DNA from: Archangium sp.
GTDB taxonomy: Bacteria; Myxococcota; Myxococcia; Myxococcales; Myxococcaceae
Direction: 5' to 3'
DNA length: 25,097 nt
Assembly: GCA_031367385.1 (NCBI GenBank)
Contig: JANLPS010000282.1
Location: 1-25,097, forward strand
Below the pieces are notes generated by a model. That model saw nothing but the letters and a program-made list of their open reading frames with translations, made no database searches and was not told the origin of the DNA. Positions 1 to 25,007 of the stretch are shown here, in pieces; position 1 is the first letter of the stretch; each line of letters starts with the position of its first letter. Made by a program: the position numbers and the translations under genes.

Positions 1-370
1 AGCAGCCCCCCGAAACGTCGGCCTCTCATCGCGCGATGCCGCAGCCGCACAAGATGGCGGTGTCGCTCGAGGAACTTCATCTCAGAACGCACTGACTGCC
101 CGCGACGCACTAGCTCGAAACGGCGGCCTCTCATCGCGCGATGCCGCAGCCGCACAAGATGGTGGCGTCGCTCGCGAAATTTCAGCGCAGAACGCACTGA
201 CTGCCCGCGAAGCAGCCCCCCGAAACGTCGGCCTCTCATCGCGCGATGCCGCAGCCGCACAAGATGGCGGTGTCGCTCGAGGAACTTCAGCTCAGAACGC
301 ACTGACTGCCAGCGACGCACTGGCCCGAAACGGCGACCTCTCCTCGCGCGATGCCGCAGCTGCACAAGAT
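1..370 (+). repeat. Tandem 105-bp repeat (about 3.5 copies visible, alternating A/B units giving a 210-bp higher-order period)
   Basis: CGAAAC recurs at 11, 116, 221 and 326. Positions 1-100 and 211-310 are nearly identical. Units contain the palindrome CATCGCGCGATG (e.g. 27-38). Reads in frame as 35-aa repeats (e.g. RNVGLSSRDAAAAQDGGVARGTSSQNALTARDALA). Confidence 0.95.
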
Positions 371-1561
371 CGTGAAGTTTCCGGCAGCGACGCTGGGGCT
401 GCGCGTGATTCAGCAGCTCCGAGAGCTGGGTTGCGCGACGCAGAGGCTCCTCGCGATGGCGGCCTCGCGGCAAGTGACGTTCGCCCGCGAACGACCCGCG
501 ACGGGGGCCCGCCAACACGCGACCCCCGCCCAGCTGCCCCACGATCAATGCTGGAGCGCCCGGTCGACGAAGCACGGGTCGCCCGAGTGCTCGCGAGCCT
601 CGATACCCGCGCCCGCGCCGGCCAGCTGCTGCTGGCGTACCCCCAGCTCGACAAGACCGCGCCCGTCGAGGTCGGAGGCGTGGTCTTCGTCGGCAACCTC
701 TTGCGCAAGCCCGAGCAAGCCAAGGCACGCATCGACTGGTCAAAAGCCAACGCAAAGGTGCCGCCGTTCTTCGCCATCGACATGGAGGGCGGCCCGTCGA
801 ACCGCATGAAGCGCGTCAAAGAGGTCGCCGACCTACCCTCCGCCAAGGAGATGGCCTCGCTCAGCGACGTCGAAGTCTGGCAGTGGGGCGCGCGGGTCGG
901 CCTGGCGATGCGCGAGGTGGGCCTCAACCTGAACCTCGCACCGGTGCTCGACGCGGCGGGCACCGGGCACATGGCCAGAAACATGCGCTCGTTCGGCGCT
1001 GACAAAACCCTGGTGGCCAAGAAGGCAAAGGCCTACGCGAAGGGTCTGCTCGAGCAGGGCGTGATGCCCTTCGGCAAGCACTTTCCCGGCTATGGAGACA
1101 TCGAAGGCGACTCAGATCACGCACTGGTCACCATCGACTGGAGCAATGCCCGGGTGCTCGAAGAGATCTCGGTCTTCGCCGAGGCCCGCGACGTGCTCGG
1201 CGGCGTGATGTTGGCGAACGTGGTCTACCCGGCCCTCGAAGACGTGCCGGCGATTCTCAGCCCGGTGGTCGTGCGTGAAGCCCACGCGCTCGGGTTCGTC
1301 ACCATGACCGACGACGTGTCGATTCAACTGCTCGCCGATTCGATTGGCGGTACCGGAGAAGACGTGTTGGTGAAGGCGTTTCTGGCGGGCAATGATCTGC
1401 TGCTGACCACGGCGCCCCCCGATTGGAACAAGGGTCTCGACTACCTCGGCATCTTGACCCGTACCGCCGAGGCCTCACCCGCGAACAGGGCGCTGCTCGA
1501 CGAATCATGCGCGAGGGTGTTGCGGCTCAAAGACCGCATGGGTCTGCTCGAAGGGCGTTGA
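2..1561 (+). CDS. Glycoside hydrolase family 3 N-terminal-domain protein (NagZ-like beta-N-acetylhexosaminidase), 5'-partial, with repetitive low-complexity N-terminal region
   Basis: GH3 motifs AIDMEGG, NLAPVLD, RSFG, KHFPGYG and MTDD (nucleophile-type Asp). Frame +2 has no stop from position 2 to the listed ORF start at 431, so the true start probably lies upstream of the window. Confidence 0.85.
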   Translation, partial: AAPRNVGLSSRDAAAAQDGGVARGTSSQNALTARDALARNGGLSSRDAAAAQDGGVAREISAQNALTAREAAPRNVGLSSRDAAAAQDGGVARGTSAQNALTASDALARNGDLSSRDAAAAQDREVSGSDAGAARDSAAPRAGLRDAEAPRDGGLAASDVRPRTTRDGGPPTRDPRPAAPRSMLERPVDEARVARVLASLDTRARAGQLLLAYPQLDKTAPVEVGGVVFVGNLLRKPEQAKARIDWSKANAKVPPFFAIDMEGGPSNRMKRVKEVADLPSAKEMASLSDVEVWQWGARVGLAMREVGLNLNLAPVLDAAGTGHMARNMRSFGADKTLVAKKAKAYAKGLLEQGVMPFGKHFPGYGDIEGDSDHALVTIDWSNARVLEEISVFAEARDVLGGVMLANVVYPALEDVPAILSPVVVREAHALGFVTMTDDVSIQLLADSIGGTGEDVLVKAFLAGNDLLLTTAPPDWNKGLDYLGILTRTAEASPANRALLDESCARVLRLKDRMGLLEGR

Positions 1562-1644
1562 CGCGCACCTGGTAGTCAATTCGCTCACTGCGCTTCTCTT
1601 CGAGCCAATGCGTAGACTGCGGCGTCTCTTTCGGGGGGTCTCGC

Positions 1645-3294
<1,650 letters not shown>

Positions 3295-3393
3295 GCCGCG
3301 GCTGGTGCTCAGGCGCCCTCGAGCCTCGGCACCAACGAAATAATGTCACGGGTCGCGTCCCGAGCCTCCTCGAGTCGCTGCGCGACGCGCCGC

Positions 3394-5061
3394 TCAGTTG
3401 ATGACGACGTTGCAGCTGCACGGCGTCGTGCCATCGCACAGGCCCGACGCGCCCAGACACAGCAGCCCGTTGCAGCAGCTGCTGCTGCCCGATGTACACG
3501 CCTGACCGGGGCCATTGCAGGTCGCTGCGACGCAAGCACCCGACGTGGCGCCCGCGACGATCGAGCATGACGTGCCTGAGCAGCAGTCGCTGCTCGCGGT
3601 GCACACCCCGCCGGTCGGCTGACACGCCATCGGTGCCTGACAGCTGCCGTTGGTGCAGACCCGTGAGCAACAGCTCGCGCCGCTCGCGCACGCGCTTCCG
3701 TTCGCGTTACAGCTGATGATGCCGCCGTCACTGCCAGTGCCAGTGCCTGTGCCACCGTCGGCCCGCACACCACCATCACCGCCGCCGCCTCCGCCCTCGT
3801 TGAAGGGCTGACACAGACCGCTCTGGCAGATGCCTTCACAGCACTTCTGCGACGCGCTGCAGGTCGCGCCGAGCGCCTGGCACAGCGGCGTCTGACACGA
3901 GAGCACGCCGCCATCACCAGGCAGACACAACGAGCCATCACAGCACTGGTCGCTGAATTGGCAGCTCTTGCTCGCGGCGATGCAACACGGCGCGGTGCCG
4001 GTATACCCGGTCGGGCACTGGCCCGAGCCACCCCCAAAGCACCGGGGGATGCCCGACGAGTCGAGCTTGCAAACGTCTTTCATGCCGTCGCAGCAGTTCT
4101 GCGAAGCGTTGATGCCACCGCCATCGGGGAGCACCTTCGCACCACAGATGTTGCCAGTGCCGTTGCAGCTCTGACCGTTGTCGCATCGGCCTCCGCTGCA
4201 CATCACGCTGCCGTTGGGGTTCACGCCGCCGCCGCAACAGGCATTGTCGCTCACACAGCTCGTACCGGTGAGCCGGCACCCGTTGGCGGGCAGGCACACC
4301 GTCGCTCCAGAGCCCGGGTCGAAGCAGGTACGCGAGCAGCAATTCGAGCCGCCGCTGCAGGGGTTGCCCTCTTGCGTACACCCGCCGCCGCCGCCGCCGG
4401 TGATGTTCAGGCACGCACCCACCCCGCCGTCGTTGACGCTGCAGGCGGCGCCGCAGCACTCCGCGTTGTGACCGCAGCGATCGCCGTTGGGCTGGCAGAA
4501 GTACGCCTTGCCGCACTTGCCGTTCTGGCACAGCGACGAGCAACAATCGGCGCCAGCGGCGCACGAGTCTCCGAGCACCTTGCACACGCCTCCCCCGGGT
4601 ATCGCCGCGCAGGTGTTGGCGTTGCAGACGCCGGTGCAGCAATCAGAAGGCGCGGCGCAGGTCGACCCCGTCGCGGTGCAAGCGTTGGCGCCGCACAGGC
4701 CATTCGCACCACACGAGCCATTGCAGCAGTCAGCGGCGGCTGCGCACGACGCGCCCGCGGGTTTGCAAAACATCGAAGCCGTACAGACCGACCCAAGGCA
4801 CTGACCATCGCAACACGGCACCGCGCCGCCGCAGGCCTGACCCGTTGCGTGGCAGCTCCCGCCGTCGGGCAACATTGTAGCCCCGCCACCGCCTCCGGCA
4901 CCGCCGCCCGAGCCGCCACCCGTACCTCCACCCGTACCTCCACCCGTACCTCCGCCCATACCGCCGCCGGTCGAGCCACCATCGACTCCCACGGGTGACT
5001 GACCGCAGGTGCAGGCCTGCAACGACAACAGACACACCATCACTGCGAACTGTAAGCGCAT
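3394..5061 (-). CDS. Cysteine-rich lipoprotein (555 aa) with 13 tandem C-C-CC-C-C modules
   Basis: Start reassigned from 5556 to ATG at 5061, giving MRLQFAVMVCLLSLQAC (lipoprotein signal) with GGAG upstream. The longer ORF would overlap the divergent gene. Repeated C-x6-C-x5-CC-x3-C-xn-C units. Confidence 0.88.
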   Translation of the reverse strand: MRLQFAVMVCLLSLQACTCGQSPVGVDGGSTGGGMGGGTGGGTGGGTGGGSGGGAGGGGGATMLPDGGSCHATGQACGGAVPCCDGQCLGSVCTASMFCKPAGASCAAAADCCNGSCGANGLCGANACTATGSTCAAPSDCCTGVCNANTCAAIPGGGVCKVLGDSCAAGADCCSSLCQNGKCGKAYFCQPNGDRCGHNAECCGAACSVNDGGVGACLNITGGGGGGCTQEGNPCSGGSNCCSRTCFDPGSGATVCLPANGCRLTGTSCVSDNACCGGGVNPNGSVMCSGGRCDNGQSCNGTGNICGAKVLPDGGGINASQNCCDGMKDVCKLDSSGIPRCFGGGSGQCPTGYTGTAPCCIAASKSCQFSDQCCDGSLCLPGDGGVLSCQTPLCQALGATCSASQKCCEGICQSGLCQPFNEGGGGGGDGGVRADGGTGTGTGSDGGIISCNANGSACASGASCCSRVCTNGSCQAPMACQPTGGVCTASSDCCSGTSCSIVAGATSGACVAATCNGPGQACTSGSSSCCNGLLCLGASGLCDGTTPCSCNVVIN

Positions 5062-5307
5062 GGAGAGCTCCGAACGGCGAACCGGCCCCGTCACCCTATG
5101 CTGTCTGCGCGAGGCTCGCGAAAAATCACACGGTGCGCACACACTGACCCACCCAGGCGAAAGGCCCAAGCAGATCACCGAAGTGGTCACCCGCGACCGG
5201 TTTCGCAGCGTTAGCAGGGGCGATTGTGCGCTCAACGCGTACGCAGACAGTGCAGCCCAAAACGGGTGAGCTTCGAGGCGCCGATGCGGCGTCTCTACAC
5301 CTGCCCC

Positions 5308-7155
5308 ATGCGAACCGATCTCTTGTTCATCGCGGGTCTGGTCGCCCTTGCCGGCTGCAATGGCGTCATCGACCTGCCCTCGCAGAGCGGCGCAATCGTA
5401 CCCGTCACCGACCCGAACCAAGACCCGGAGCCGACCGCCGAAGCCGACCCGCATATCTTCAAGTGCGCCGACCCGACCGCCGACCCGACGGTCAGCACCG
5501 TCTCGCGCCTGAGCCGCACCCAGTACATCAACTCGCTGCGAGACATTCTCGGGCACGGGCTCTCTGCGCCGCAGGCCGACGCGTTCATGGCCGCGGTCGG
5601 CACTTCACTGGCTCGGCTGCCGCGCGACGGCTCGGGCGGCAAAGCGGTGATCTACGACACCCAAGATCAAGGGCTCAATGGCCTGGCGGCGACGGCGCAA
5701 TTCGAAACGGCGCGTGCGTTGGGCACCAACCTCACCAACAACGGCAGCGTCAAAGACAGCTTCATTCGCGGCATCGCCGGCACGACCGTCTGCGCGAACA
5801 CGGCCTCGAGCGCCTGCGTCGATGCCTTCATCGAGCGCTTCGGCATGCTCGCCCTGCGACGGCCGCTCGACCCGGTCGATGGAGACCACGAGTTTTACCG
5901 CTCGGTCTACGACACCCAGAAGGGCTATCGCGGCCTGATCATCGCGCTCCTGCTCTCGCCGGGCTTCTTGTTTCAGACCGAGTTCAAGGGCGCCGCGGTG
6001 GCCGGTCGCAGCGACCTGTCGACCCGCACGCCGTACGAGCTCGCCTCGAAGCTCTCGTTCTCGATCGTCAATACCATGCCCGACGACGCGCTCTTCGCCG
6101 CGGCCGCCGCCAACTTCACCGGCCCCGGCAACTCGCTTGCCGAGCAGACCGATCGGCTCGTCGCCAGCGCCGAGGCCCGGGCCCAGTACCGCAGCTTCTT
6201 CACCCAGTGGCTGCGGCCCGACCGCGTGCCCGGCCTGAGCAACACCATCTTGAAGCCGGCGCTGACGATGATCTACCCCGACAACGCCGACGCCGGGCTC
6301 TCGCCGTACACCGACCTCGTGAAGCTGCGCAGCGCCGCCATTCAAGAAGTCGTCGACCTCGGCGACTACTACGCCTTCGGAGTCGAGCACGGCACCCTCA
6401 AAGACGTGATGACCAGCGACCTCTCGTTCTCGCAGTCAGACGATCTCTCGCGGCTCTACGGCGTCGACAACTGGACGCCAGCCGACGGAGGGACGCCGAC
6501 GCACTTCGCTCCAGGGCAACGGGCCGGGCTGTTCACCCGCGCGGCCTTCTTGTTCTCGGGCGCCACCGAGCCCAACCCGATCATGCGCGGAGCCCGGCTG
6601 CGCACTGAGTTCTTGTGCGCCTCGCTGACGCCTCCGGGCAACATCAACGTGCCTTCGCAGGTCGTCTTGCCGACCGAAGCCACCCACCGCCATGAGCTCG
6701 AGCTGAAGACTCAGACCAACGGCACGGTCTGCGCGGGTTGCCACGTGACGATGATCAACCCGCTGGGGTTCGCCTTCGACAGCTACGACTCGCTCGGGCG
6801 CTACCGCAGCCAGCAACCGATTCTCGAGCTGGCCACTGGCAAAACCAAGGGCTGGGCGCCGATCGATGCCGCCACGATGCCGAGGGTCGACTCGCTCGAA
6901 GACACCACCCAGACCACCGACGCGGTCGGGCTGAGCGCCCAGCTGGGCAAGAGCGAGCAGCTGAGCGCGTGCTTCACCCGCCACTACTTTCGCTTCACCG
7001 CGGGCCGCCCCGAGAACGAGAAGACCGACGGCTGCCAGCTTCGCCAGATGAACGACGCCCTCTCTGACCCCGCGACCGGCAGCCTGCAGGGTCTGATTCG
7101 CAGTGTGCCCACCACCCGCGCCTTCACGGTGCGCAAAATCGTGCCGGAGACTTGA
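5308..7155 (+). CDS. DUF1592/DUF1588-family (DUF1587-1595-1592-1588-1585 architecture) lipoprotein with a CxxCH motif
   Basis: Start at ATG 5308 gives MRTDLLFIAGLVALAGC (lipobox LAGC). Family-typical segments: RLSRTQYINSLRDILG, ALLLSPGFLF, YELASKLSF...PDDAL, RAGLFT...PIMRG, CAGCH..INPLGFAFDSYDSLGRYR. Confidence 0.88.
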   Translation: MRTDLLFIAGLVALAGCNGVIDLPSQSGAIVPVTDPNQDPEPTAEADPHIFKCADPTADPTVSTVSRLSRTQYINSLRDILGHGLSAPQADAFMAAVGTSLARLPRDGSGGKAVIYDTQDQGLNGLAATAQFETARALGTNLTNNGSVKDSFIRGIAGTTVCANTASSACVDAFIERFGMLALRRPLDPVDGDHEFYRSVYDTQKGYRGLIIALLLSPGFLFQTEFKGAAVAGRSDLSTRTPYELASKLSFSIVNTMPDDALFAAAAANFTGPGNSLAEQTDRLVASAEARAQYRSFFTQWLRPDRVPGLSNTILKPALTMIYPDNADAGLSPYTDLVKLRSAAIQEVVDLGDYYAFGVEHGTLKDVMTSDLSFSQSDDLSRLYGVDNWTPADGGTPTHFAPGQRAGLFTRAAFLFSGATEPNPIMRGARLRTEFLCASLTPPGNINVPSQVVLPTEATHRHELELKTQTNGTVCAGCHVTMINPLGFAFDSYDSLGRYRSQQPILELATGKTKGWAPIDAATMPRVDSLEDTTQTTDAVGLSAQLGKSEQLSACFTRHYFRFTAGRPENEKTDGCQLRQMNDALSDPATGSLQGLIRSVPTTRAFTVRKIVPET

Positions 7156-7161
7156 AGCGTC

Positions 7162-8904
7162 ATGAAATACCGACCTCTCTCACGTCGACATCTGCTGCAG
7201 GGAGCCGGGGGCTTCGCGCTGGCGCTGCCCTTCATGCCGTCGCTGATGAGCCAGGCGCACGCGCAGTCGATACCCAAACCGAAGTTTCTGGTGTTGATGG
7301 CCCACGGGCACGGCGGCGTGTCGGCCGAGAACACCTACCCGGTCAACGCGACCGTCAGCGCCAACTTGACCAGCTCGACGCTCTACGCCGCGATGAACGG
7401 AGCGCCCAAGCACGACATCGTCTCGGGCGACCTGCTCTCGCTCAAGCGCACCCACGCGCAGACCGCCGCGTCTCGCAGCCAGGTCATCAAAGATTTCGAC
7501 AACGGCGCCGCGCGCATCTCGCCGATGATCGGCAGCTTCGTACCCGATGCGCTGCTGGCGAAGATGAACCTGCTGTGCGGGCTCGACGTGATGTGCGGCT
7601 CGGGTCACTGGGCCGGCATGTTCGGCAACTTCGGCAACAGCTTCGGAGGCCCCCCCGACCCGGCGAATGGTCGCTCGGTCAAGCAGGTGCCGACCATCGA
7701 CTACGTGGTCTCGCAGTCGAACAAGTTCTACTCAGACGCTGATCGCACGCTGGTCAGGGCGCCGTCGCTGATGCTGGGCAACTGGGGCACCTCGTTCTAC
7801 CGCTCGGGCAACGACGTCGGTGAGAACCCCTACCGCTCGTGGAACCTGGGCGACATGTACGACAAGTTGTTCGCGGGAGTGAATACCAAGCCCGGCCAGA
7901 CCGACCCCGACGCGCCACTGGTCGACGTGCTGTACGACGATTACAAACGTCTGGCGCGTGGAGCCTTCGGCCCCGCCCGGCGCCTGGGCAAAGACGATCG
8001 CGTTCGTCTCGAAGCGCACATGTCGAACCTGCAGGAGATCAGCCAGCGCCTCAAAGCGGTGACCAGCGCGGCGTGCACGCTGCCGACGATCACCTCTACC
8101 CAACGCAACGACTTCATTCGCGGTGGCGACGTGACGTGGGACTGGGACTCAGCGCCTCCCGATGCCGCGGGCCAGCTGGCCGATGTGAAGGCGGCCTCTG
8201 AGCTGTTCAACCTGATGACGATTCAAGCCTTCTTGTGCGGCACCACCCGCATCGTCGTGCGCACCGTCAGCCCGCTGCTCGCTCCTGACCCGACCTACAT
8301 TCAGGACTACCACCACGCCCTCTTTCACAATCACTTCGTGCCGCAGATTCAAGAAGACTACATGGCGAACCACCGCCAGGCCTTTCAGATGGCGTTCGTC
8401 GATTTGATCTCCAAGATGAACGCGACCGAAGTGCTGCCAGGCGTGCCGCTGCTCGACCAATCACTGGTGTACTGGACGGCGGAGAGCGGCGTGAGCACCC
8501 ATGACAACCTCACCTTCCCCACCATCGCGGCGGGCAGCGCGGGTGGGTTCTTGAAGACCGGGCAATACGTCGACTACCGCAACACCCTCGTAGGCAGCGG
8601 CATGGGCTACTCCACCGGCATCACTGACCCCGAGCGAGAGGTCGTGCGGCTCTACCGCGGCATCGCGCAGAACCGGTGGCTGGCAACCATCTGCCAGGCG
8701 ATGGGCCTCGACCCGGTCGACTACGAGCTCAAAGACGACTTCTTCGATGACCCGGCGCTGCCGACCACCAACCGCCTCAAGTTTCCCGAGCGCGGCGGCA
8801 TGGCTCCCGGCTACGGCGACTCGGCGTTCAAAAGCTACTTCTACAGCTGGCCCGAGCACATCGTTCGAGACATGAGCGAGGTCATGCCGCTGCTCAAGGC
8901 GTGA
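7162..8904 (+). CDS. DUF1552 (HXXSHH-type) protein with Tat signal
   Basis: Twin-arginine signal SRRHLLQGAGGFALALPFMPSL; PTID, LGKDDRVRLEAH, LLDQSLV...ESG...HD and AGSAGGFLKTGQYVDY segments; lies 6 bp downstream of its usual DUF1592 partner. Confidence 0.88.
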   Translation: MKYRPLSRRHLLQGAGGFALALPFMPSLMSQAHAQSIPKPKFLVLMAHGHGGVSAENTYPVNATVSANLTSSTLYAAMNGAPKHDIVSGDLLSLKRTHAQTAASRSQVIKDFDNGAARISPMIGSFVPDALLAKMNLLCGLDVMCGSGHWAGMFGNFGNSFGGPPDPANGRSVKQVPTIDYVVSQSNKFYSDADRTLVRAPSLMLGNWGTSFYRSGNDVGENPYRSWNLGDMYDKLFAGVNTKPGQTDPDAPLVDVLYDDYKRLARGAFGPARRLGKDDRVRLEAHMSNLQEISQRLKAVTSAACTLPTITSTQRNDFIRGGDVTWDWDSAPPDAAGQLADVKAASELFNLMTIQAFLCGTTRIVVRTVSPLLAPDPTYIQDYHHALFHNHFVPQIQEDYMANHRQAFQMAFVDLISKMNATEVLPGVPLLDQSLVYWTAESGVSTHDNLTFPTIAAGSAGGFLKTGQYVDYRNTLVGSGMGYSTGITDPEREVVRLYRGIAQNRWLATICQAMGLDPVDYELKDDFFDDPALPTTNRLKFPERGGMAPGYGDSAFKSYFYSWPEHIVRDMSEVMPLLKA

Positions 8905-8964: not shown

Positions 8965-9243
8965 ATGCTCAAGAACGTGTGGCTGGTAGTGGTGGTGATG
9001 CTCGGAGTTGCTTGCTCGCCGACGTATGGCCAGCAGAAATGCAAGACCTCAACCGAGTGCGGCGGCTCGCACTTCTGTTTGAAGAACTGCACCTCGGTCG
9101 ACGCCGGCCCCGGGGTCGACGTGTCTGGCACCTGCCGCAAGCCGTGCACAGCCGACAGCGATTGCGGTGACCTCGGGTTGAAGAAGCCGTTCTGCGCCAG
9201 TGACTTGTGCGGCAACAAGGCCTGCTACGAGGCCCCTTTCTGA
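8965..9243 (+). CDS. Small cysteine-rich lipoprotein (92 aa)
   Basis: MLKNVWLVVVVMLGVAC lipoprotein signal followed by CKTSTEC...C...C...CRKPCTADSDC...C...C...C disulfide-rich modules. Confidence 0.78.
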   Translation: MLKNVWLVVVVMLGVACSPTYGQQKCKTSTECGGSHFCLKNCTSVDAGPGVDVSGTCRKPCTADSDCGDLGLKKPFCASDLCGNKACYEAPF

Positions 9244-9569: not shown

Positions 9570-9586
9570 CGGCGCTGAGGTGTAGG

Positions 9587-9739: not shown

Positions 9740-10294
9740 ATGACCAAGACTTTCACGACATCGATGCTGTTTGCAGTGGCGGGTCTGTATGGGTGCACTG
9801 GAGCGGTTTCGGATGACCCGACCGCGAGCGAGTTTGGTGTCTACCAAGACGCGCTGGTCAGCGCCGCCGGCGTCGCGAGCTGTGATTCTCCGAAGAAGGT
9901 GCTCGTTTGCCATCGGCCCCCCGGCAACCCGGCCAACGCCCACACCATTTGCATCGGCGCGCCGGCCGCGGCACCCCACCTGAAGCATCACCCCGACAGC
10001 CTCGGCGCGTGCGGGCCGACCGGCTCGGAGCCTGGCGGCCCCGGTTCGGGTCAGGGCGGCGGCCACGGCGATGACGGGCGAGATGGAGGAGACCTGGAGC
10101 TCGATGAAGGCGGCAGCGGTGGTCACGGTCACTCGGGCAGCGGCGGTGGTACCGGAGATGGCGCTGGCGGCGGTACTGGCACTGGCGGCGGTACTGGTAC
10201 TGGCGGCGGTACCGGTGCAGGCGGCAGCGCGGGTGGCCCGACCAACCCTGAGACGAGCCCTGACGCGGGCTACACCATGCCGGGCCTGGGGTAA
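9740..10294 (+). CDS. Small lipoprotein with a Cys/His module and Gly-rich tail
   Basis: Strong RBS; signal ending LYGC; compact module VCHRPPGNPANAHTICIG...HLKHHPDSLGAC; GGGTGT repeats. Confidence 0.82.
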   Translation: MTKTFTTSMLFAVAGLYGCTGAVSDDPTASEFGVYQDALVSAAGVASCDSPKKVLVCHRPPGNPANAHTICIGAPAAAPHLKHHPDSLGACGPTGSEPGGPGSGQGGGHGDDGRDGGDLELDEGGSGGHGHSGSGGGTGDGAGGGTGTGGGTGTGGGTGAGGSAGGPTNPETSPDAGYTMPGLG

Positions 10295-14226: not shown

Positions 14227-16788
14227 TCACGGCTGGTACGAGTGAACGATCACTTCGATCGCATCGACCTCGAGCACCGCCTGCGTCCCCCCGTTGCGCG
14301 CGAGCGGAGTGACCACGAAGGTCCACGTTTGGCGGTAGCGAAGCAGCCTTGCCAGCGCTTCGCCCTCGACGGTGGCGTGCAAGACGCCCCCATCGTCGGT
14401 GGTCGAAGGCAACGTCTCGTAGAACGGCCCCAACCAGGCCCCAAGCTCGACGCCCGCGCTGTCGCCGGTGTTGGTTCGCCGGTGGGCGACTGCACGCGCG
14501 ACCAGCTCGATGCTGCTGGGGCTCGCACCCAGCGCCGGCAGCCCGTCGGCCACCACGTCGAGCACCAGGGCTGGCCGCTGGCTGGCGTAGTGATACCTGC
14601 GGCCTGAACCCACAGACACCAGCGCATCGTACCGGCGGCTGTGCTGAACATGGGGCACGGCAAGCTGCTGAGAAACCTGCTGGCTCACCCCGACCCGAAC
14701 CCAGCCTCCATCAGGGTCGACGTCTTCAGGGCCCTGCCGCCGGTAGAGGTCGAAGGCCTCGTTGACCACCCAGAGGTGCTGGTGGCTCCAGTCCCAGGTG
14801 GCGTTGAGCAGCTGATTGGTCGGGCCTGGCAGCCCAGTGACTCCGGCATCTGGGAGCAGGGTCACCAGGGCTCCGCGGGTGGTCAGCGTCGGGCCGAGCG
14901 GGGTCGTGAAGCAGAAGTTGTTGAAGTCGGCCGGCCCCTCGGTGAACTCCGGGCCCAGCGAGACGCCACTGGGCAGCGACCAGACCGGTAAGCCCGCCGG
15001 GCCACCCGAGGCCACCAGGTACAACGGCGTTTGGCGAGCCTCGTACCAGCCCACGGCTGAAAAGAAGTCTGGCGCCGGCCAGCTGCTCACTCCGTCGGTC
15101 GCCACTCGCGCCGAGACTGAGATCAGCCCACCATCTGTCTTCAGCGCGCCGTTCGAGCTCGCAGGCTCGATGCCAATGGTCGCGCCGTAGGAGTAGCGAA
15201 GCACCGAGTCGACGCCGGTGACGAAGGTGTCGCTGAACGGCTCGTGCCAGACCAGGCCAGCGTCTCGCTCAATGCGGCGCGACGTATCGCTCGCGAGGTC
15301 GAAGTCGAACCATGACTGCGTGGCGATGAACGACATGTTGTCGTCGAACAGCACTTCGCACTCGATGCCGAGGTGACCGAGCGCGATCTGGCGCAGGCCA
15401 AGGCTCTCGAGAATGCCTCGGTCGGCACAGTCGACGCTGCCCAGCACCGGCAGCCCCCCATCTGCGAGCCACTCGCCGATGGCGATGGTGATGCCGCCGT
15501 CGCGCGTCGAGGGCGAGGCGTAAAAGGTGCGCCGCCGCCGCAGATCTTGGGTCAGCGCGGTCTGGTATCGGAGCTGCGGCTCGAGCACGCAGCCCAGCTC
15601 CCGCGAACAGGTCGACCACTGCGCGGTGTTGGCGTCGCGGCGAAGGCTGCGAGCCGACCACCACTCATCAACGCCGGTGAAGTTCTCGTCGGCCCAGGCG
15701 TCATGCGCGGTCGGCGGCTGGCGCCCAGCGAAGGGGTCGACGGTGAGGTTTTCTTGATCTCCCAGCCGGCTCAGATCAGCCGCGTAGATCGAGGGAAAAT
15801 CGGTCGTCAACAGGCTCTCACCGCCGATGACCAACGGGGTGCGGTCGAGCGACCAGGCGGGCTCGAGCCCTGCGTCGAGGCTCGGCGCGGCCAACGGGCC
15901 ATCGGGCAGCGCTCCCAGCGGGCGCAGGTGGTGGGGGCTGGCATTGATTCGCGTGTGGCGGGGCGAGGCCACCACGTCGAGCCAGTGCACTGGCACCTGC
16001 ATCGAGGGGTTTCCCGCTCCGTCGAACGCCTCAAGGCTCGCGCCGATGACGTCGGGGTTGAAGGCAACCGCAGTGGCTGGCAACGCGGTGCACTGCACGA
16101 ACTGGCTCGAGGCACTGCCACCCGCCGGGGTGCTCGGCACCGCCCTCAGCACCCGCTGGCCCGCTTGGCATGCGCCCAGCGAGAGCTCCGCGACCGAGTC
16201 GGGGCGGCTGATGTCGCCCCACGGCCGAATTTGGAGCACCGCCTGGTCGGCGGTCGAGGTCAGCGGCGGAGGAGGTGCGTCGGCATCGACCTCGAAGCGC
16301 GCGAGCTCGAGCGTGGCCGAGAGTTGGGCCAGGTCAGAGAGGGCGACCCGTACTGAGGCGGTGCCGGTGCCGGTGGCCGAGAGCGGCACGGTGCACGCCA
16401 GCGTGAACACCGGCGCCTCGGCGGTCGAGAGCACGCAGGTGAGCGCGACCACCGACTCGACCGTGACCTCAGGCAGGGTCGAGAGCGGCTCGCTGGCGAC
16501 GAAGCGAATCAAGGCCTGCACACGTGGCCCGGCGGCCGTGGGCGGCAAGTCAGGTTGATAGGTGGCCAGCGGCGTCAGGGCCAGCGTCGGAGCGACCGCC
16601 AAGCCCGGAGGCGTTTGATCGAAGAGCGTGCGCTCGACGCAGATGCCGGCCGGCAGCTGGCAGGCCAGGCCCGAGAGGCAATCGGCCGAGCTGGTGCAGG
16701 TGACCGACGCATCGGCCGCGATCGACGCATCGAAGCGGCAGCCACCGAAAAGCACGAGCAGGAGAATCGCGGTTCGTGGTGAGCTCAA
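14227..16788 (-). CDS. Large hypothetical lipoprotein (853 aa): N-terminal Cys module, Ig-like segments, possible degenerate beta-propeller
   Basis: TTG start, MSSPRTAILLLVLFGGC lipoprotein signal, CTSSADC...C...C module, DQTPP/ASEPL/DGAGN segments typical of bacterial Ig-like repeats; long ORF that fills the interval. Confidence 0.75.
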   Translation of the reverse strand: MSSPRTAILLLVLFGGCRFDASIAADASVTCTSSADCLSGLACQLPAGICVERTLFDQTPPGLAVAPTLALTPLATYQPDLPPTAAGPRVQALIRFVASEPLSTLPEVTVESVVALTCVLSTAEAPVFTLACTVPLSATGTGTASVRVALSDLAQLSATLELARFEVDADAPPPPLTSTADQAVLQIRPWGDISRPDSVAELSLGACQAGQRVLRAVPSTPAGGSASSQFVQCTALPATAVAFNPDVIGASLEAFDGAGNPSMQVPVHWLDVVASPRHTRINASPHHLRPLGALPDGPLAAPSLDAGLEPAWSLDRTPLVIGGESLLTTDFPSIYAADLSRLGDQENLTVDPFAGRQPPTAHDAWADENFTGVDEWWSARSLRRDANTAQWSTCSRELGCVLEPQLRYQTALTQDLRRRRTFYASPSTRDGGITIAIGEWLADGGLPVLGSVDCADRGILESLGLRQIALGHLGIECEVLFDDNMSFIATQSWFDFDLASDTSRRIERDAGLVWHEPFSDTFVTGVDSVLRYSYGATIGIEPASSNGALKTDGGLISVSARVATDGVSSWPAPDFFSAVGWYEARQTPLYLVASGGPAGLPVWSLPSGVSLGPEFTEGPADFNNFCFTTPLGPTLTTRGALVTLLPDAGVTGLPGPTNQLLNATWDWSHQHLWVVNEAFDLYRRQGPEDVDPDGGWVRVGVSQQVSQQLAVPHVQHSRRYDALVSVGSGRRYHYASQRPALVLDVVADGLPALGASPSSIELVARAVAHRRTNTGDSAGVELGAWLGPFYETLPSTTDDGGVLHATVEGEALARLLRYRQTWTFVVTPLARNGGTQAVLEVDAIEVIVHSYQP

Positions 16789-16809
16789 CCGAAAGATCCT
16801 CTCGTCACA

Positions 16810-16927
16810 GCCCGCGTGCGGTGCCGCCCGCGTGCGGTGCCGGACTTTACCCTTGTGTCGTCACCGCACCGGCGCGCCCGGGAAATCGGAGGGTTGACCC
16901 AACGGTGAGCGCGGTGCCGGACTTTAC
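16810..16927 (+). repeat. 16-bp tandem duplication plus 17-bp direct repeat in a divergent intergenic region
   Basis: GCCCGCGTGCGGTGCC at 16810-16825 and 16826-16841; GCGGTGCCGGACTTTAC at 16834-16850 and 16911-16927. Confidence 0.9.
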
Positions 16928-16950
16928 ACCTCAAGCGCACCATCACCCCG

Positions 16951-17140
16951 AAACACGTGCTTTGGCGGCCAACCACCCCTTGCGCGACCTCGAAACACCG
17001 ACTTTCACCCTCCCGCACCCGCTGCACGACGCTCAAACACGTGGTTTCGCCCCGCACCACCCTGTGCGCGACCCTCAAACACCTGCTTTGGCCCCGCACC
17101 ACCCTGTGCACGACCCTCAAACACGTCGTTTCGCCACGCA
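16951..17140 (+). repeat. Degenerate 42-bp tandem array (4 full units plus 1 partial)
   Basis: AAACAC-N4-TTT at 16951, 16993, 17035, 17077 and 17119; approximate consensus AAACACNNNNTTTSGCCCCGCACCACCCTGTGCRCGACCCTC. Confidence 0.92.
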
Positions 17141-17230
17141 ACACAGCGAAATTAGGTGTCAGAAAATGCGCGTGAATACCGCACATCGACCTCCGTCTGA
17201 GCCCGGCAGCAGTTCAACCCAGGAGGACAC

Positions 17231-17893: not shown

Positions 17894-17925
17894 TGTGCTC
17901 AGAAACTTCGAGGCCGTCGTGCTGT

Positions 17926-17960
17926 TGAGGTGGCGGTGAACATTTCTCACCGCCACCTCA
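17926..17960. promoter_or_regulatory. Perfect 14-bp stem hairpin covering the translation-initiation region of the esterase gene
   Basis: TGAGGTGGCGGTGA (17926-17939), 7-nt loop, TCACCGCCACCTCA (17947-17960); no U-tract follows. Confidence 0.65.
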
Positions 17961-19060
17961 TGCTCGTTCTGACCCTCTGCGCCGCCTGCGGAGCCACTCC
18001 AAGCACCAGCAACGACTCAGGGTTGGTCGCCGAAGACCCCGACGCGGGCAGCGTGGTCGACGCTGGGGTGCACGTCGGTGACGCGGGCGTGCTGGCTGGC
18101 AACGCCATCTCCGCCCCCGCCGACACGTGGACGTGGGTCGATTTCCCCGAGTCGAAGTGTGCCTCAGGCTCGGCGACCGGCATCGGCATCAACCCGCATG
18201 CAGGCTCGACCAGGCTGCTCATCTACTTCGAGGGCGGCGGGGCGTGCTTCAACGCTGCCAGCTGCTGGGGCCCGATGCCGCAAGCCGCCAACGTCGCCGG
18301 CTTCGACGCCTCTGACTTCGCCGCCGCCCGACAACTGGGCTACCCCATCTTCTCTCGCACCAGCGCGGGCAACCCGTTCAAAGACATGAGCTTCGTGTTC
18401 GTGCCGTACTGCACCGGAGACATGCACGCGGGCCGGGTGGAGACCGACCTGATGGTGAACGGCGCGGTGAAGCCCACGTATTTCTGGGGAAGCAAAGACC
18501 TCGAGCTGTTCTTGGCCCGCCTGGTGCCCACCTTCTCGAACACCGATCACGTGTGGGCCATCGGCAGCAGCGCGGGCGGCTTCGCGACGGTGCTCGACTA
18601 CGACCAGGTCACGCGAGCGTTCAGCGGCGTGCGGGTCGACATCATCGATGACTCGGGCCCGTCGATCGTCTCGAAGGGCCAGACCGACAACGCCGGGCTG
18701 TTCAAGCTGTGGGGCGTCTCGCCACCCGTGGCGTGCCCTTCGTGTAAGAGCCACGCCGACGTGCTCGCCGCGAATCGCAAGAGCCAGCCGGGCAGCAAGT
18801 TTGCGTTGATGTCGTTCGCCGACGACCCGGTGATCTCGAAAGACTTCGGGTACACGGTGGCCGAGTACCCCGCGGTGCTGCAGAAGTTCGAGGCGGAGCA
18901 CCTGGCAGGTGACGCGAACGCGGCGACGTTCATCGTGACGAACAAGCAGCAGCATGTGGTGCAGACCGACCTGGCGAGCGCGCCGGCGTATCTGCCGTGG
19001 CTCACCCTGATGGTGAATGACGACCCGGCGTGGGCTTCGAAGTCATACGCGCACCCGTGA
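17930..19060 (+). CDS. Pectin acetylesterase-family (alpha/beta hydrolase) lipoprotein
   Basis: CASGS.TG, IYFEGGGACF...C, NPF...FVFVPYCTGDMHAG, nucleophile GSSAGG, IDDSGP; lipoprotein signal ending AAC. Start could be GTG 17930, GTG 17936 or ATG 17960. Confidence 0.87.
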   Translation: MAVNISHRHLMLVLTLCAACGATPSTSNDSGLVAEDPDAGSVVDAGVHVGDAGVLAGNAISAPADTWTWVDFPESKCASGSATGIGINPHAGSTRLLIYFEGGGACFNAASCWGPMPQAANVAGFDASDFAAARQLGYPIFSRTSAGNPFKDMSFVFVPYCTGDMHAGRVETDLMVNGAVKPTYFWGSKDLELFLARLVPTFSNTDHVWAIGSSAGGFATVLDYDQVTRAFSGVRVDIIDDSGPSIVSKGQTDNAGLFKLWGVSPPVACPSCKSHADVLAANRKSQPGSKFALMSFADDPVISKDFGYTVAEYPAVLQKFEAEHLAGDANAATFIVTNKQQHVVQTDLASAPAYLPWLTLMVNDDPAWASKSYAHP

Positions 19061-19135
19061 GGCATCCTTGGCGGCCGAGCTCCCATGCCACGCCGGTGAC
19101 TCCGCCGCTGCCAGGCACCGAGGGGCTCCGCCCGT

Positions 19136-21670: not shown

Positions 21671-21840
21671 CAGCCCAATCGCGGCACGACGAAGCGCACC
21701 AGAAACACGAAGAAGATGTTGAAGGCGACGACAGAGACCAGCGCCCGCTTGAGGCCGCGCTGAGGCAGCGGGTCGCGCGCCGCGATGATGGGCAGCGCGA
21801 GCAGCGCCAGAACCACCGACATGAGGACCAATTTACTCAC
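21670..21840 (-). CDS. Small 56-aa two-TM membrane protein (absent from the ORF track)
   Basis: GTG at 21840 gives MSKLVLMSVVLALLALPIIAARDPLPQRGLKRALVSVVAFNIFFVFLVRFVVPRLG; its TGA overlaps the ATG of the PCP-Wzy gene (TGATG); GC3-rich codons. Confidence 0.8.
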   Translation of the reverse strand: MSKLVLMSVVLALLALPIIAARDPLPQRGLKRALVSVVAFNIFFVFLVRFVVPRLG

Positions 21841-21882
21841 GGAAGTTTTTTACCACGGGTCTGTTAAGGCCGCGCCAGGCCT

Positions 21883-22818
21883 ATGAACATCTTTTCGACT
21901 CCCCTGTTTCTCGAGACCGCTGGCGCCCTCTTCTACCCCCAGCGGGAGCGGAGCATCGAGACCTTCGAGCTCGAGGGCCGGGTGCTGCGGTTGTTGGTGG
22001 TTGATCAGAAGACCGTCGTGCGCACGATGCCCTTCTACGACTACCCGCAGCCGCTCGACGTGGCGCCTGAGGGGCTGGTGAAGCCGCTGTCGTTTTTCCC
22101 CCGTACGGTGGTGAAGACGACGTTGGTCGAAGAGCGGGTCGGGGCCGAGCCGCCGGGGTTTCAGCCGTCTCCGTACATCGAGTGGGCGCGGGTGGGTGAT
22201 TGGGCGGCGTACACCAAGCTCATCGACGAGCGGCCGAAGATCAAAGCCAACGATTCAGCGCGGCAGATTCGGCGCATCACCAAAGACGTGGGGCCGTTGT
22301 CGTTCATCTTCGATGATCAGCGCCCGGAGGTGTTCGACGCCGTCGTTCGGTGGAAGTCGGCGCAGTACATCAGCACCGGAGTCGGCGACATGTTCGCGCG
22401 GCCAGCGAACGTGGAGCTGTTTCGGCAGCTGCAGGCGAGGAAGGCCGTGGTGGTGAGCAGTCTGACCGCCGGCTCGACGTTGGTGGCGGCGCACTTCGGC
22501 TCGCTGACCGATGAACGAATGACCTGGTGGGTACCGGCGTACGACTCGGCGTATTCGAAGTATTCGCCCGGGCGGCTGATGCTCGAGAAGTTGCTCGAGG
22601 AGAGCCATCGTTTGAAGCACCTCGAGTTCGACTTCTTGATCGGCGACGAGGGGTACAAGTTCAATTTCGCGACGCACAACCGGGTGATTGGGCCGCTGGG
22701 CACTCCGGGGTTGCGCGAGCGGGTGCTGACGCGGGCGCAGAAGGAGGCCAAGGGGCTGCTGCGGCGGTTTCCTCGGGTGTACGACCTTGCGAAAGAAGTG
22801 CGCAGACGGCTTCGCTGA
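21883..22818 (+). CDS. GNAT-family N-acetyltransferase (CelD/BcsL-like, Acetyltransf_6)
   Basis: LVAAHFG, PAYDSAYSKYSPGRLML, EFDFLIGDEGYK motifs; divergent from the polysaccharide polymerase genes. Confidence 0.85.
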   Translation: MNIFSTPLFLETAGALFYPQRERSIETFELEGRVLRLLVVDQKTVVRTMPFYDYPQPLDVAPEGLVKPLSFFPRTVVKTTLVEERVGAEPPGFQPSPYIEWARVGDWAAYTKLIDERPKIKANDSARQIRRITKDVGPLSFIFDDQRPEVFDAVVRWKSAQYISTGVGDMFARPANVELFRQLQARKAVVVSSLTAGSTLVAAHFGSLTDERMTWWVPAYDSAYSKYSPGRLMLEKLLEESHRLKHLEFDFLIGDEGYKFNFATHNRVIGPLGTPGLRERVLTRAQKEAKGLLRRFPRVYDLAKEVRRRLR

Positions 22819-23093
22819 GAGACCGGCGTCGCTCCACGTTCGAGCAGGTGCGGGGTCGTCCGCGTGTGGCCTCCGCTGTGAGCGGAAGTCGCGTGGCTCA
22901 TGGCGTGGTTGAGAAATCGCCGTCGATGGGCGCCGAATAGGGCCCGACGAGGCTGTGTTGGCCCAGGTTCAGCAGCAGTTTTCAAGGCGTTCTTCGGCGT
23001 CTTGGGCGAGACCCGGGTGACCACGTGAAGAACTTCGCGAGTGAGGTGCCGTCTGTGGCTGCGCGGGCTGATGCGGCGGCGGCGGACGATTTA

Positions 23094-23504
23094 GTCGAGC
23101 GTGTTCGGGCGGCGCGGCGAGAAGCTCGGATCCGCTTTCAGCGCGGTGGAGTGCGGCGACTCGCTGGTATCGATGAGCTCACTTCTGAACCGAAGAGCAT
23201 CGCAGCGCTTGCGGACGATTCATTAAGCCGTGGCGCCGAGTGTGTTCGGCCGGCGGGGCGAGAAGCGCTGCTGCGCTTTCAGCGCCTTGGAGTGCGGCGA
23301 CTCACTGGTACTGCTGACCTCACTTCCGAACCGGAAAGCCTCGCCGCGGCTTCGTACGATTCGTTGCTCCGTGGCGTCGAGCGCGTTCGGCCGGCGGGGC
23401 GAGAAGCGCTGATCCGCTTTCAGCGCCCTGGAGTGCCGAAGGGCGCTGGTACCGGTGAGCTCACTTCTGAACCGAGGAGTCTCGCCGCACCTGCCGACGA
23501 TTCA
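23094..23504 (+). repeat. Degenerate 141-bp tandem repeat (about 3 copies)
   Basis: GCGAGAAGC at 23117, 23258 and 23399; shared CGCTTTCAGCGC, GGAGTGC, CTCACTTCYGAACCG and ACGATTC blocks; units start near 23094, 23235 and 23376. Confidence 0.92.
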
Positions 23505-23717
23505 TCGGATCAAACGTCGGTGAGAGAAGCTGTGCTTCGCCCTCAGAGCCCTGGCGACCACCAGCGCCCTCGGACTGTTCAACGCTCGCGCGACGAGAGC
23601 GGTCTTGCGGCGCGAGGCTGTCACGTCGAAGCCCTGCTCGGTGACGTGGAGCGGGCTGCAGCGCGAGAAACGCGCGTGGGTAACGGCGAACGAGATTTTC
23701 CGGCTGGGCACAGCGCC

Positions 23718-25007
23718 GTGAGAAGGATGTTGTGCTCGCTGGTGCAGGTGACGAGTGTGCTCATCATGGTCGGCTGCACGGGCGCTGCAACAACGGGATC
23801 AGGCACGATCGCAAGCCGTGAAAACGATGCAGGTGGCGCAACGGTGAAAGCTGACGCGGGCATCACGTCGTTCGGCAACGGAGGTACCGGATCGGGTGGA
23901 GATTTTTCCGACGGCGGCATCAGCCGTGGCGGCGGAGATGGTGGCGGCGGCACCGGAAGCGGCGGCGGCACCGGAAGCGGCACCGGAAGCGGCACCGGAA
24001 GCGGCGGCGGCACCGGTAACGGCGGCGGCGGCACCGGGAACGGCGGCGGCACCGGGAACAGCGGCGGCACGGGAAGCGGCGGCGGTACGGGCAGCGGCGG
24101 CGGCACTGGAAGCGGTGGCGGCACCGGCAGCGGCGGTGGTACGGGCAGCGGCGGCGGCACTGGGAACGGCGGCGGCACGGGAAGCGGTGGCGGCACCGGA
24201 AGCGGCGGCGGTACGGGCAGCGGCGGCGGCACTGGCAGCGGTGGCGGTACTGGCGGCGGAGGCGGCACCGGAAGCGGTGGCGGTACCGGCGGCGGCGGCA
24301 CAGGAAGCGGTGGCGGTACTGGCGGCGGCGGCGGCACCGGAAGCGGTGGCGCGTTCGGAGAAACGCACGCCGGCAGCTACAACATCGGTCCCGTCGATTG
24401 GCAGGGCAGCGTCTTCAACAACTCCTGCAGCCCCTACCCCATCGCGATTCAAACCCTCGAAGGCATGTACCTCGCGGGAGTCGACAACTCCGTCAACTTC
24501 AGCGGCGCATACTGCGACGCCTGCGCGCAAATCACGACCCGCATGGGCAAGACGCTCTTGGTGCGAATCGTCACCACGGGCGTCTCGAAAGCTCCTGGAG
24601 ACATGGACCTGAGCCTCGAGGCCTACGACGCGATTCATCTCGATGACCCGCAGGGCACACCCACCATTCCTCGGCCGATGACGTGGCGCTTCGCGAACTG
24701 CGCAGCGGCTTCAACCATTCGGCTGCAATTTCAAACCGAGGCCAACGCGTACTGGACGAGCCTGTGGGTGCGAAACGCAAACCTCCCCTTGAGATCGGTC
24801 AAGGTGAAGAGCACCAAGCACGCTGCGTTCACCGAGCTTCGGCGAGAGACAGACGGCACGCTCAACGACGACAACGGCTTCGGCGCGGGGGCGTTCACGT
24901 TGCAACTGACCGCCGTCGATGGCCAGGTGGTCGAGCAGACCTTCACCGGGTTTAGTCCCAATGCTGGTCATTTAGCAGCGGGGCGCTGGACCCATTTCTT
25001 GTCGTAA
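23718..25007 (+). CDS. Expansin-like (EXLX1-type DPBB + CBM63-like) lipoprotein with long Gly/Thr/Ser linker; last 15 residues derived from an IS
   Basis: Start reassigned to GTG 23718 (MRRMLCSLVQVTSVLIMVGC). CDACAQIT, GDMDLSLEAY, MTWRFANC, NAYWTSLWVRNANLPL and FTLQLTAVDGQ are expansin-like. Confidence 0.82.
   Translation: MRRMLCSLVQVTSVLIMVGCTGAATTGSGTIASRENDAGGATVKADAGITSFGNGGTGSGGDFSDGGISRGGGDGGGGTGSGGGTGSGTGSGTGSGGGTGNGGGGTGNGGGTGNSGGTGSGGGTGSGGGTGSGGGTGSGGGTGSGGGTGNGGGTGSGGGTGSGGGTGSGGGTGSGGGTGGGGGTGSGGGTGGGGTGSGGGTGGGGGTGSGGAFGETHAGSYNIGPVDWQGSVFNNSCSPYPIAIQTLEGMYLAGVDNSVNFSGAYCDACAQITTRMGKTLLVRIVTTGVSKAPGDMDLSLEAYDAIHLDDPQGTPTIPRPMTWRFANCAAASTIRLQFQTEANAYWTSLWVRNANLPLRSVKVKSTKHAAFTELRRETDGTLNDDNGFGAGAFTLQLTAVDGQVVEQTFTGFSPNAGHLAAGRWTHFLS
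23941..24350 (+). repeat. Approximately 18-bp coding repeats (GGGTGS/GGGTGN linker)
   Basis: About 20 iterations of GGCGGCGGCACCGG(A/C)AGC-like units with synonymous variation. Confidence 0.92.

Follow-up and report, generated by a model that had tools for sequence, protein, structure and literature searches.

An Acidic Asp-Ala-Gly-Type Repeat beside the Lipid Anchors of Exported Myxococcaceae Proteins: A Likely Membrane-Proximal Stalk

Many exported proteins of an uncultured member of the Myxococcaceae carry tandem arrays of a short acidic unit, D-[A>G≈S]-G, that is Asp-Ala-Gly (DAG) with its rarer variants Asp-Gly-Gly (DGG) and Asp-Ser-Gly (DSG). With a probability of about 0.6, we take this tripeptide to be the unit of acidic, predicted disordered stalks that stand beside lipid-anchored cysteines and likely act as membrane-proximal spacers, not as modification sequons. 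Arrays also serve as some of the inter-domain linkers. The data are best read with the arrays as a variety of the disordered membrane-proximal linker, specific to the lineage and defined by its sequence. The stretch under study, hereafter the window, is the whole of a 25,097-nt piece of DNA (contig JANLPS010000282.1 of assembly GCA_031367385.1, Archangium sp.; contig C242 in our numbering), which belongs to a draft genome of 7.97 Mb with 65% GC. Its GlmS has 89% identity with the protein of a Myxococcaceae metagenome-assembled genome (MAG), and 81–83% with those of Archangium MAGs.

Results

The tripeptide is enriched in exported proteins only

Genes were called with our own synonymous-codon score (6,311 genes, 86% coding). 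Heuristic rules (lipobox, type-I signal peptide, Tat motif, hydrophobic segments) sorted them into three approximate classes: cytoplasmic (2,662 proteins), lipoprotein (838) and other secreted (1,187). The observed to expected ratio (O/E) of DAG was 0.98 in cytoplasmic proteins (401 copies) and 3.39 in exported ones (1,836 copies), with 4.54 for lipoproteins and 2.02 for the other secreted proteins. For DGG, it was 1.00 and 2.36 in cytoplasmic and exported proteins, respectively. The permutations DGA, ADG, AGD, GAD and GDA remained between 0.86 and 1.30, and the substituted or reordered tripeptides EAG (0.78), NAG (0.99), GGD (0.81) and EGG (0.76) were not in excess. Among 6,423 tripeptides ranked in predicted exported proteins, DAG came first (1,266 observed versus 444 expected, z 39) and DGG second (z 19.8), the third reaching only z 14.

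A preliminary description of the window, made from its letters alone, had proposed that D-[AG]-G marks exported proteins only, and had named the loss of enrichment upon correction for composition, or an equal enrichment of shuffled tripeptides, as outcomes that would speak against it. The enrichment proved to be specific for the compartment, for Asp and for the order of residues. It also withstood correction: it was robust to per-protein and first-order Markov expectations, and after SEG masking of low-complexity segments, the DAG ratio was still 2.85 in exported against 1.01 in cytoplasmic proteins. The word "only" holds for the enrichment and not for the tripeptide itself, as cytoplasmic proteins contain 674 D-[AG]-G copies, the number expected by chance (O/E about 1.0).

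An artefact of GC content or composition was ruled out by these results, with permutations close to 1, and by two outside samples. A complete sister-family genome with 75% GC, of which 400 kb were sampled, had a DAG O/E of 1.04 over 24 lipoproteins, and a DNA pattern for three DAG units had no match in five GC-rich proteobacterial replicons (10.2 Mb of large plasmid or chromid records, Pseudomonadota only). A DNA-level word was ruled out as well: the synonymous codons inside DAG are diverse, GAT, GCA and GCT being over-used relative to the genome, and no excess was found in the other reading frames. The constraint therefore acts at the protein level.

In the window, the D-[AG]-G counts of the preliminary description were reproduced exactly, with 6 copies in the GH3 frame, 6 in the lipoprotein starting at 1645, 8 in the Cys-rich lipoprotein, 2 in DUF1592, 1 in the 8965 protein, 2 in the 9740 protein, 8 in the 853-aa lipoprotein, 3 in the esterase and 4 in the expansin-like protein (sum 40), and none in the 1,722 residues of PilZ, GlmU, GlmS, the 17231 protein and GNAT. 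This cytoplasmic zero is uninformative by itself, the expectation being 1.6 copies. The exported proteins, GH3 left out, have 34 copies versus 9.5 expected from composition (Poisson P 7e-10), and 6 copies of the reverse order G-[AG]-D. The label of GH3 as exported is unsupported: its domain, from M548 on, shows no signal peptide. Of its six copies, three stem from one unit of a 105-bp tandem repeat taken as the GH3 N-terminus, which is probably not coding. In the GH3 frame, this repeat has a third-position GC content (GC3) of 0.50 and a codon score of -0.29, versus 0.84 and +0.22 for the GH3 domain, and was therefore judged non-coding-like.

Most copies lie in tandem arrays

Two thirds of the lipoprotein copies (1,375 of 2,081) lie inside tandem arrays, as do 383 of 807 copies in other secreted proteins, versus 59 of 674 in cytoplasmic proteins. 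The array unit consists of the tripeptide and 2–5 spacer residues, and repeats with a period of 4–9, mostly 5–8, residues. Gaps of 5–8 residues separated successive copies in 978 of 2,149 cases in exported proteins and in 17 of 140 in cytoplasmic ones. Arrays of at least three units are present in 188/838 lipoproteins, 53/1,187 other secreted and 8/2,662 cytoplasmic proteins. The median array comprises 5 units in 33 residues, and the longest 16 units in 113 residues. DAG is the predominant unit (669), followed by DGG (172) and DSG (149), and 85% of units have no Ser, Thr or Asn acceptor. Array composition is dominated by Gly (24%), Ala (18%) and Asp (16%), with 0.8% Glu, 0.7% Lys and few hydrophobic or aromatic residues, which amounts to a net charge of -0.14 per residue.

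Once arrays and low-complexity segments were masked, little of the DAG excess was left. The O/E fell to 1.29 in lipoproteins (1.12 beyond residue 120), 1.05 in other secreted proteins (0.92) and 0.93 in cytoplasmic proteins (0.92). In masked lipoproteins DGG still reached 1.7–1.8, as did GDG (1.9), ADG (1.7) and NGG (1.5) to a similar extent. This leftover is a generic Asp/Asn-Gly turn signal, without order specificity. The sequon-like scatter over unrelated folds that had been proposed was thus not borne out, most lipoprotein copies being in tandem and masked DAG being near chance. Likewise, the remark that the tripeptide is not limited to linkers applies to a few proteins, among which the 853-aa lipoprotein (six non-array copies versus 0.93 expected, P 4e-4), and not to the bulk of the signal.

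Arrays are placed next to both kinds of lipid anchor

Copy density was 19–22 per 1,000 residues at mature positions 10–40 of lipoproteins and about 3 past position 150, with about 0.8 in cytoplasmic proteins. The usual lipoprotein N-terminus reads as the lipobox cysteine, some 8 residues, then (D-A-G-x2-5)n including DGG and DSG variants. Array start was at most 60 residues after the cysteine in 142 of the 196 arrays of predicted lipoproteins (heuristic lipobox calls). Among 167 array-bearing lipoproteins, the Asp of the first unit was at +9, +10 or +11 from the cysteine in 64, and before +8 in just 4. Within the window, the first unit is found at +10 for the esterase, at +11 for both the 1645 and the Cys-rich lipoproteins, and at +18 for the expansin-like protein. 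As internal linkers, 38 arrays were counted in lipoproteins, and 13 in the other secreted proteins.

A second group of arrays is found at the C-terminus. Thirty of the 47 C-terminal arrays are followed by a tail made of C-x-C, a hydrophobic stretch and an Arg-rich end, as detected by a regular expression, and in 25 of these 30 the last unit ends 9–12 residues ahead of the tail cysteine. Conversely, among 46 proteins with such a tail, 28 have at least three units in the 60 residues upstream and 37 at least one. The first 20 tails were compared with NCBIfam models: TIGR03901 or TIGR03382 was above cut-off in 7, and 16 matched when weaker matches to MYXO-CTERM-anchored families were included, with no match for 3 and an unrelated match for 1. 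The MYXO-CTERM signature (Cys, transmembrane helix, Arg-rich end) belongs to the tails that follow the arrays, not to the arrays. In Myxococcus xanthus the MYXO-CTERM tag is cleaved by myxosortase and its carriers are anchored at the surface through the T2SS (type II secretion system), according to the accessible part of PMC11980579, where the tag is also reported throughout the phylum.

The MYXO-CTERM cysteine is separated from the last DAG unit by a recurrent segment of about 10 residues, strand-like in appearance (for example at C92:20806-21195 and C257:5599-5988). It is made of a basic residue, Tyr/Leu, any residue, Val and Gly, then C-[GS]-C, and begins upstream of the TIGR03901 alignment.

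A link between the arrays and the disordered region of TraA was looked for and not found. No TraA was above cut-off in the genome of the window, and the TraA proteins of two other genomes, G118 and G065, have no DAG array.

Carriers and predicted structure

Forty array-bearing and 40 array-free lipoproteins were drawn at random, of which 23 and 18, respectively, had no family. The 17 array-bearers with a Pfam match comprise esterases, a GH5 cellulase, an S9 peptidase, a GDSL lipase, a nuclease, propellers (RCC1, Kelch), Ig-like domains and a beta-helix. The array-free sample includes TPR, cytochrome c, ABC-auxiliary, HEAT and PilO proteins, four DUF1592 proteins and some hydrolases. No array was present in 19 OmpA-domain, 16 TolC-like and 5 BamD-like genes. 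This check covered 21 of 22 OmpA places, a single place for each of 18 genes out of 37 TolC-like places, and the 5 of 9 BamD-like places over the cut-off; four places had no called gene.

An AlphaFold2 model of the window esterase, built on a 22-sequence alignment, gave a predicted local distance difference test (pLDDT) score below 50 for residues 1–42, of 60–67 for residues 41–60, and above 90 for the catalytic domain.

Distribution and evolution

To follow arrays in other genomes, the DNA pattern for three DAG units was used, with a reversed pattern as built-in control. It matched 302 places in the genome of the window, versus 0 for the reversed control and 1 for the G-A-D order. Over the phylum, it was present in 171 of 251 genomes. 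In the own family, 81 of 83 genomes (G196 included) had tens to about 350 matches each, whereas 11 of the 32 genomes of the sister family, in the same order, had it, none with more than 8 matches. It was found in none of the 21 genomes of a small-genome family of the phylum. Three distant families had it in 16/18, 16/20 and 11/11 genomes, often with a 4-residue period. In 400 kb of G118, a Myxococcus-like member of the own family, 2–3 of 25 lipoproteins had arrays and there was no DAG excess. This low share, together with 84 pattern matches against 302, indicates that the trait is quantitative within the family.

In the sampled 75%-GC sister-family genome, G060, the lipobox cysteine is mostly followed by Ala/Pro-rich stretches (for example AP/PA runs) in place of DAG arrays.

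Homologues of the window esterase were compared across the family (n = 31). All were lipoproteins, and their tether registers could not be aligned; 19 had at least two units, 3 had one and 9 had none. Linkers of the (GGGxG)n type were found in 1 of the 9 unit-free and 2 of the 3 single-unit homologues. A small Cys-rich module is inserted in some of the homologues.

In the esterase homologues of loci L006 and L018, Gly-rich linkers replace DAG arrays altogether. The same second linker type, built from 6-, 12- or 18-bp DNA repeats, adjoins DAG units in the window (1738–1898 and 23943–24351).

Features of the window

Coordinates of the motif-bearing genes and of their arrays are collected in Table 1. 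Pfam supported most of the gene names given earlier (GH3, DUF1592/1588, DUF1552, PilZ, GlmU, GlmS, a GNAT-type acetyltransferase, pectinacetylesterase and a Wzy_C membrane protein). The name "expansin" had no match at E<=1e-3, and the gene is called expansin-like here.

Table 1. Motif-bearing features of the window (positions in the 25,097-nt stretch; offsets counted from the lipobox cysteine).
Feature	Position	Strand	Details
105-bp tandem repeat, 3.4 copies, 87% matches	9-370	not assigned	TRF; contig start, open in the GH3 frame
1645 lipoprotein gene	1645-3294	+	Cys residue 17; no Pfam family
1645 lipoprotein, motif region	1693-2496	+	first DAG at +11 (1723-1731); Gly-rich repeat 1738-1898; DAG 1912-1920
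1645 lipoprotein, further copies	2074; 2170; 2476-2496	+	singles at 2074 and 2170; DGG/DAG pair at 2476-2496
Cys-rich lipoprotein	3394-5061	-	Cys residue 17; first DGG at +11 (4975-4983); no Pfam family
Cys-rich lipoprotein, three-DGG cluster	3721-3777	-	also four single P/N-D-G-G between cysteine modules
Isolated copies in DUF1592	6289-6297; 6484-6492	+	count close to expectation
Isolated copy in 8965 protein	9100-9108	+	count close to expectation
Isolated copies in 9740 protein	10082-10090; 10262-10270	+	count close to expectation
853-aa lipoprotein	14227-16788	-	eight scattered D-[AG]-G, a hydrophobic residue after each
Pectinacetylesterase lipoprotein gene	17930-19060	+	lipobox Cys residue 20
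Esterase tether array	18014-18088	+	DSG at +10; DAG at residues 38, 44, 51
Expansin-like lipoprotein gene	23676-25007	+	Cys residue 34; no Pfam match
Expansin-like tether	23775-24351	+	DAG 23826-23834, 23853-23861; DGG 23910-23918, 23937-23945
Gly-rich 18-bp repeat, 22 copies	23943-24351	+	after the DGG units of the expansin-like tether

Relatives of the 853-aa lipoprotein were searched in 61 family genomes, the own one included, and were restricted to its first 300 residues or so; the remaining 550 residues, approximately, had none. These first residues share 28–36% identity with at least 4 paralogues of about 1,050 aa in the own genome, and have relatives in four more family genomes.

Other repeats were noted in the window. 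The repeat at the contig start resembles a stretch at C517:3937-4061, which may lie on the other side of an assembly gap. Upstream of the expansin-like gene, positions 23096–23505 hold 2.9 copies of a 141-bp tandem repeat that is found nowhere else in the genome; the list of open reading frames (ORFs) reads it as part of a 660-aa ORF, with a GC3 of 0.60 in this segment. A 42/84-bp tandem repeat (16951–17144) occupies the intergenic region that separates the 17231 gene from the gene of the 853-aa lipoprotein, and a counterpart with 78% similarity is found at C514:10849-11023. Finally, a DUF1592/DUF1588 lipoprotein gene lies directly upstream of a Tat-signal DUF1552 gene (5302–8904). DUF1592/DUF1588 lipoproteins are expanded in the genome (loci L193, L206 and L207) and made up the four DUF1592 cases among the 40 random array-free lipoproteins.

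Discussion

Acidic stalks next to lipid anchors

The reading favored here is that arrays are acidic spacers placed next to the membrane anchor. They would hold enzyme, propeller and Ig-like passenger domains off the membrane, and their composition may keep the chain unfolded, soluble and negatively charged. About half of the outer-membrane lipoproteins of E. coli carry a disordered linker after the anchor, which is needed for Lol trafficking whatever its sequence, as reported by El Rayes et al. (bioRxiv 10.1101/2021.01.05.425367). In the accessible part of PMC12846838, the linker is described as a sequence-independent strand in a LolE cleft, formed by residues 12–14 in the case of LolB. The LolE-cleft strand suggests a reason why the first 8–10 residues are free of the motif: they may be left to the machinery that processes or transports the anchor. 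Linker type would then differ by lineage, with DAG arrays in the own family and Ala/Pro-rich stretches in the sister family.

Several observations weigh against a purely passive stalk. The first is the sharpness of the unit. In residues 6–80 of 788 lipoproteins, analysed blind to the motif, D-x-G was enriched for Ala (O/E 11.1), Gly (4.3) and Ser (4.3) at the middle position, all other residues being at 1.12 or less (Thr 0.50, Val 0.57, Pro 0.77). At the first position of x-A-G, Asp alone was enriched (Glu 0.60, Asn 0.75), and at the third position of D-A-x, strong enrichment was seen for Gly only. As much as 26.5% of all Asp in this part of lipoproteins belongs to the motif, versus 1.9% in cytoplasmic proteins. 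A passive spacer should accept many sequences, and the stalk reading leaves such a sharp definition unexplained. Recurrence of the unit in distant families argues, moreover, for selection on the tripeptide itself, and a recognition register would account equally well for the offset of about 10 residues seen with either kind of lipidated cysteine. A scattered excess at P<1e-3 was detected in 9/814 lipoproteins, 3/1,108 other secreted and 2/2,532 cytoplasmic proteins, and in no protein of the same sets for the reverse motif. The prediction of disorder concerns a single protein. Lastly, the export classes are our own heuristic calls, with no benchmarked predictor behind them, and among the 80 sampled "lipoproteins" one methyltransferase and one PilO were apparently misclassified; misclassified proteins would weaken the contrast between exported and cytoplasmic proteins, not generate it.

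A recognition element

A recognition role is kept under consideration because of the sharp unit, its recurrence over the phylum and the symmetric offset from both anchors. Arrays would then be the myxobacterial counterpart of the signals that direct lipoproteins to the surface, which we find doubtful. The association with MYXO-CTERM tails fits this role, the carriers being surface-anchored via T2SS in M. xanthus in the accessible account of PMC11980579. So does the nature of the sampled carriers with a Pfam match, namely hydrolases, propellers, Ig-like and beta-helix proteins, as against TPR, cytochrome c, ABC-auxiliary, HEAT and PilO proteins among array-free lipoproteins, and the fact that none of the OmpA-domain, TolC-like and BamD-like genes checked bears an array. 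This functional contrast is, however, based on 40 + 40 proteins, of which 23 and 18 lack a family. Other facts fit poorly: arrays are also used as internal linkers; homologues differ in unit number and register, some making do with a poly-Gly linker or with nothing; TraA, the best-studied MYXO-CTERM protein, is array-free in two genomes; and the sister family is nearly without arrays, although MYXO-CTERM is phylum-wide in the accessible text of PMC11980579. A more specific version, in which arrays are a positional code read by the Myxococcota envelope machinery to send lipid-anchored enzymes and adhesins to the surface or into vesicles, we hold to be more doubtful. If true, it would reveal a new sorting or retention signal common to the lipoprotein and myxosortase pathways.

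Less likely explanations

Three further explanations rank below a recognition role and are less likely. Asp carboxylates might bind Ca2+ or Mg2+, which would make the stalk stiffer or link it to lipopolysaccharide or exopolysaccharide. An Asp every 5–8 residues with hardly any basic residue, in a Gly-rich context near the membrane, is what such binding might use. We consider it improbable, as no known Ca2+ motif is matched, the period is variable compared to the 9 residues of RTX repeats, each unit has one acidic residue compared to DxDxDG, and Glu is excluded despite also binding cations.

Modification or isomerisation of Asp, by a periplasmic transferase that would use the unit as sequon or through succinimide and isoaspartate formation, was the suggestion of the preliminary description. 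The small residues Ala, Gly and Ser after Asp permit succinimide formation, and Asp in the unit is followed solely by these three; compartment-specific enrichment and the strict tripeptide point in the same direction. It is nonetheless very improbable, given that 85% of units lack a Ser, Thr or Asn acceptor, that isolated DAG on folded domains occurs at about chance level, and that isoaspartate chemistry leaves the invariant Gly at the third place unexplained; no candidate enzyme was identified and the literature search on such repeats was empty.

Equally improbable is a neutral origin, in which GC-rich linker DNA would slip during replication and keep multiplying a founder unit, the tripeptide itself being under no selection: some adjacent units are identical in DNA (for instance four 18-nt units at C55:10796-10875) and array length and register change rapidly between homologues, but DAG codons are diverse, with the over-use of GAT, GCA and GCT reported above, Pro, Val and Thr (single-base neighbours of the Ala codon) are frequent in spacers and almost absent inside units, hundreds of unrelated genes share the unit, as do distant families, the reverse-order pattern is found once versus 302 times, and the 75%-GC sister genome has no arrays in the 400 kb sampled.

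Implications

If arrays are stalks, about one lipoprotein in five in this genome and most MYXO-CTERM-like proteins hang from one strictly defined acidic repeat. Myxobacterial feeding and cooperation rely on lipid-anchored surface enzymes, on vesicles and on outer-membrane exchange. Proteins of this class can be picked out by the arrays as a simple sequence mark, and display constructs could borrow them as a ready natural stalk. With them, it can also be clearly tested whether lipoprotein linkers described as "sequence-independent" are able to carry information. As a warning for annotation, arrays create spurious similarity among unrelated proteins, such as the weak matches obtained with MXAN_5453 and phytase-like models.

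Comparison with known systems

No description of Asp-Ala-Gly-type repeats in bacterial exported proteins was found in the literature searched, supplements being outside its scope. According to one study, no bacteria carry a heavier load of low-complexity regions than myxobacteria, and its accessible part does not mention this repeat (PMC6821194); neither are such stalks mentioned in the accessible part of Haft's myxosortase preprint (10.1101/2023.06.07.544157).

The closest known counterparts are the linkers of Gram-negative outer-membrane lipoproteins such as RcsF, Pal, NlpD and LolB which, in the accessible descriptions cited above, also follow the lipidated cysteine, are predicted to be unstructured, vary in length and precede unrelated globular domains. 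Unlike these sequence-independent linkers, the arrays are made of a strict tandem tripeptide that starts at +9 to +11, are strongly acidic, and are also present before a C-terminal anchor. An intrinsically disordered region adjoining MYXO-CTERM was noted for TraA and MXAN_4924 in the accessible part of PMC11980579 (Guo, Haft & Wall 2025), and resembles the arrays in that it is disordered and immediately precedes the invariant cysteine of a surface-anchoring tag. It differs in that no composition or repeat is described in that part of the source, and in that TraA has no DAG array in two genomes. With the RTX or beta-roll nonapeptide GGxGxD there is no correspondence, the period being variable here and the order being D-x-G.

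Two short motifs of Bacteroidota share with the present unit the property of being Asp-containing and specific for exported proteins. One is the acidic lipoprotein export signal at +2 to about +5, a region that the arrays avoid, with 4 of 167 first units before +8. The other is the O-glycosylation sequon D-[ST]-x, which is scattered and requires Ser or Thr, whereas the copies described here are in tandem and mostly have neither. In staphylococci, the Sdr and Clf proteins, which are anchored to the Gram-positive wall, have a stalk of Ser-Asp dipeptide repeats whose Ser residues are glycosylated. As in the arrays, an acidic repeat of short period separates the functional domain from the anchor in many surface proteins that are not related; the myxobacterial form differs in being a tripeptide with spacers, mostly without a hydroxyl residue.

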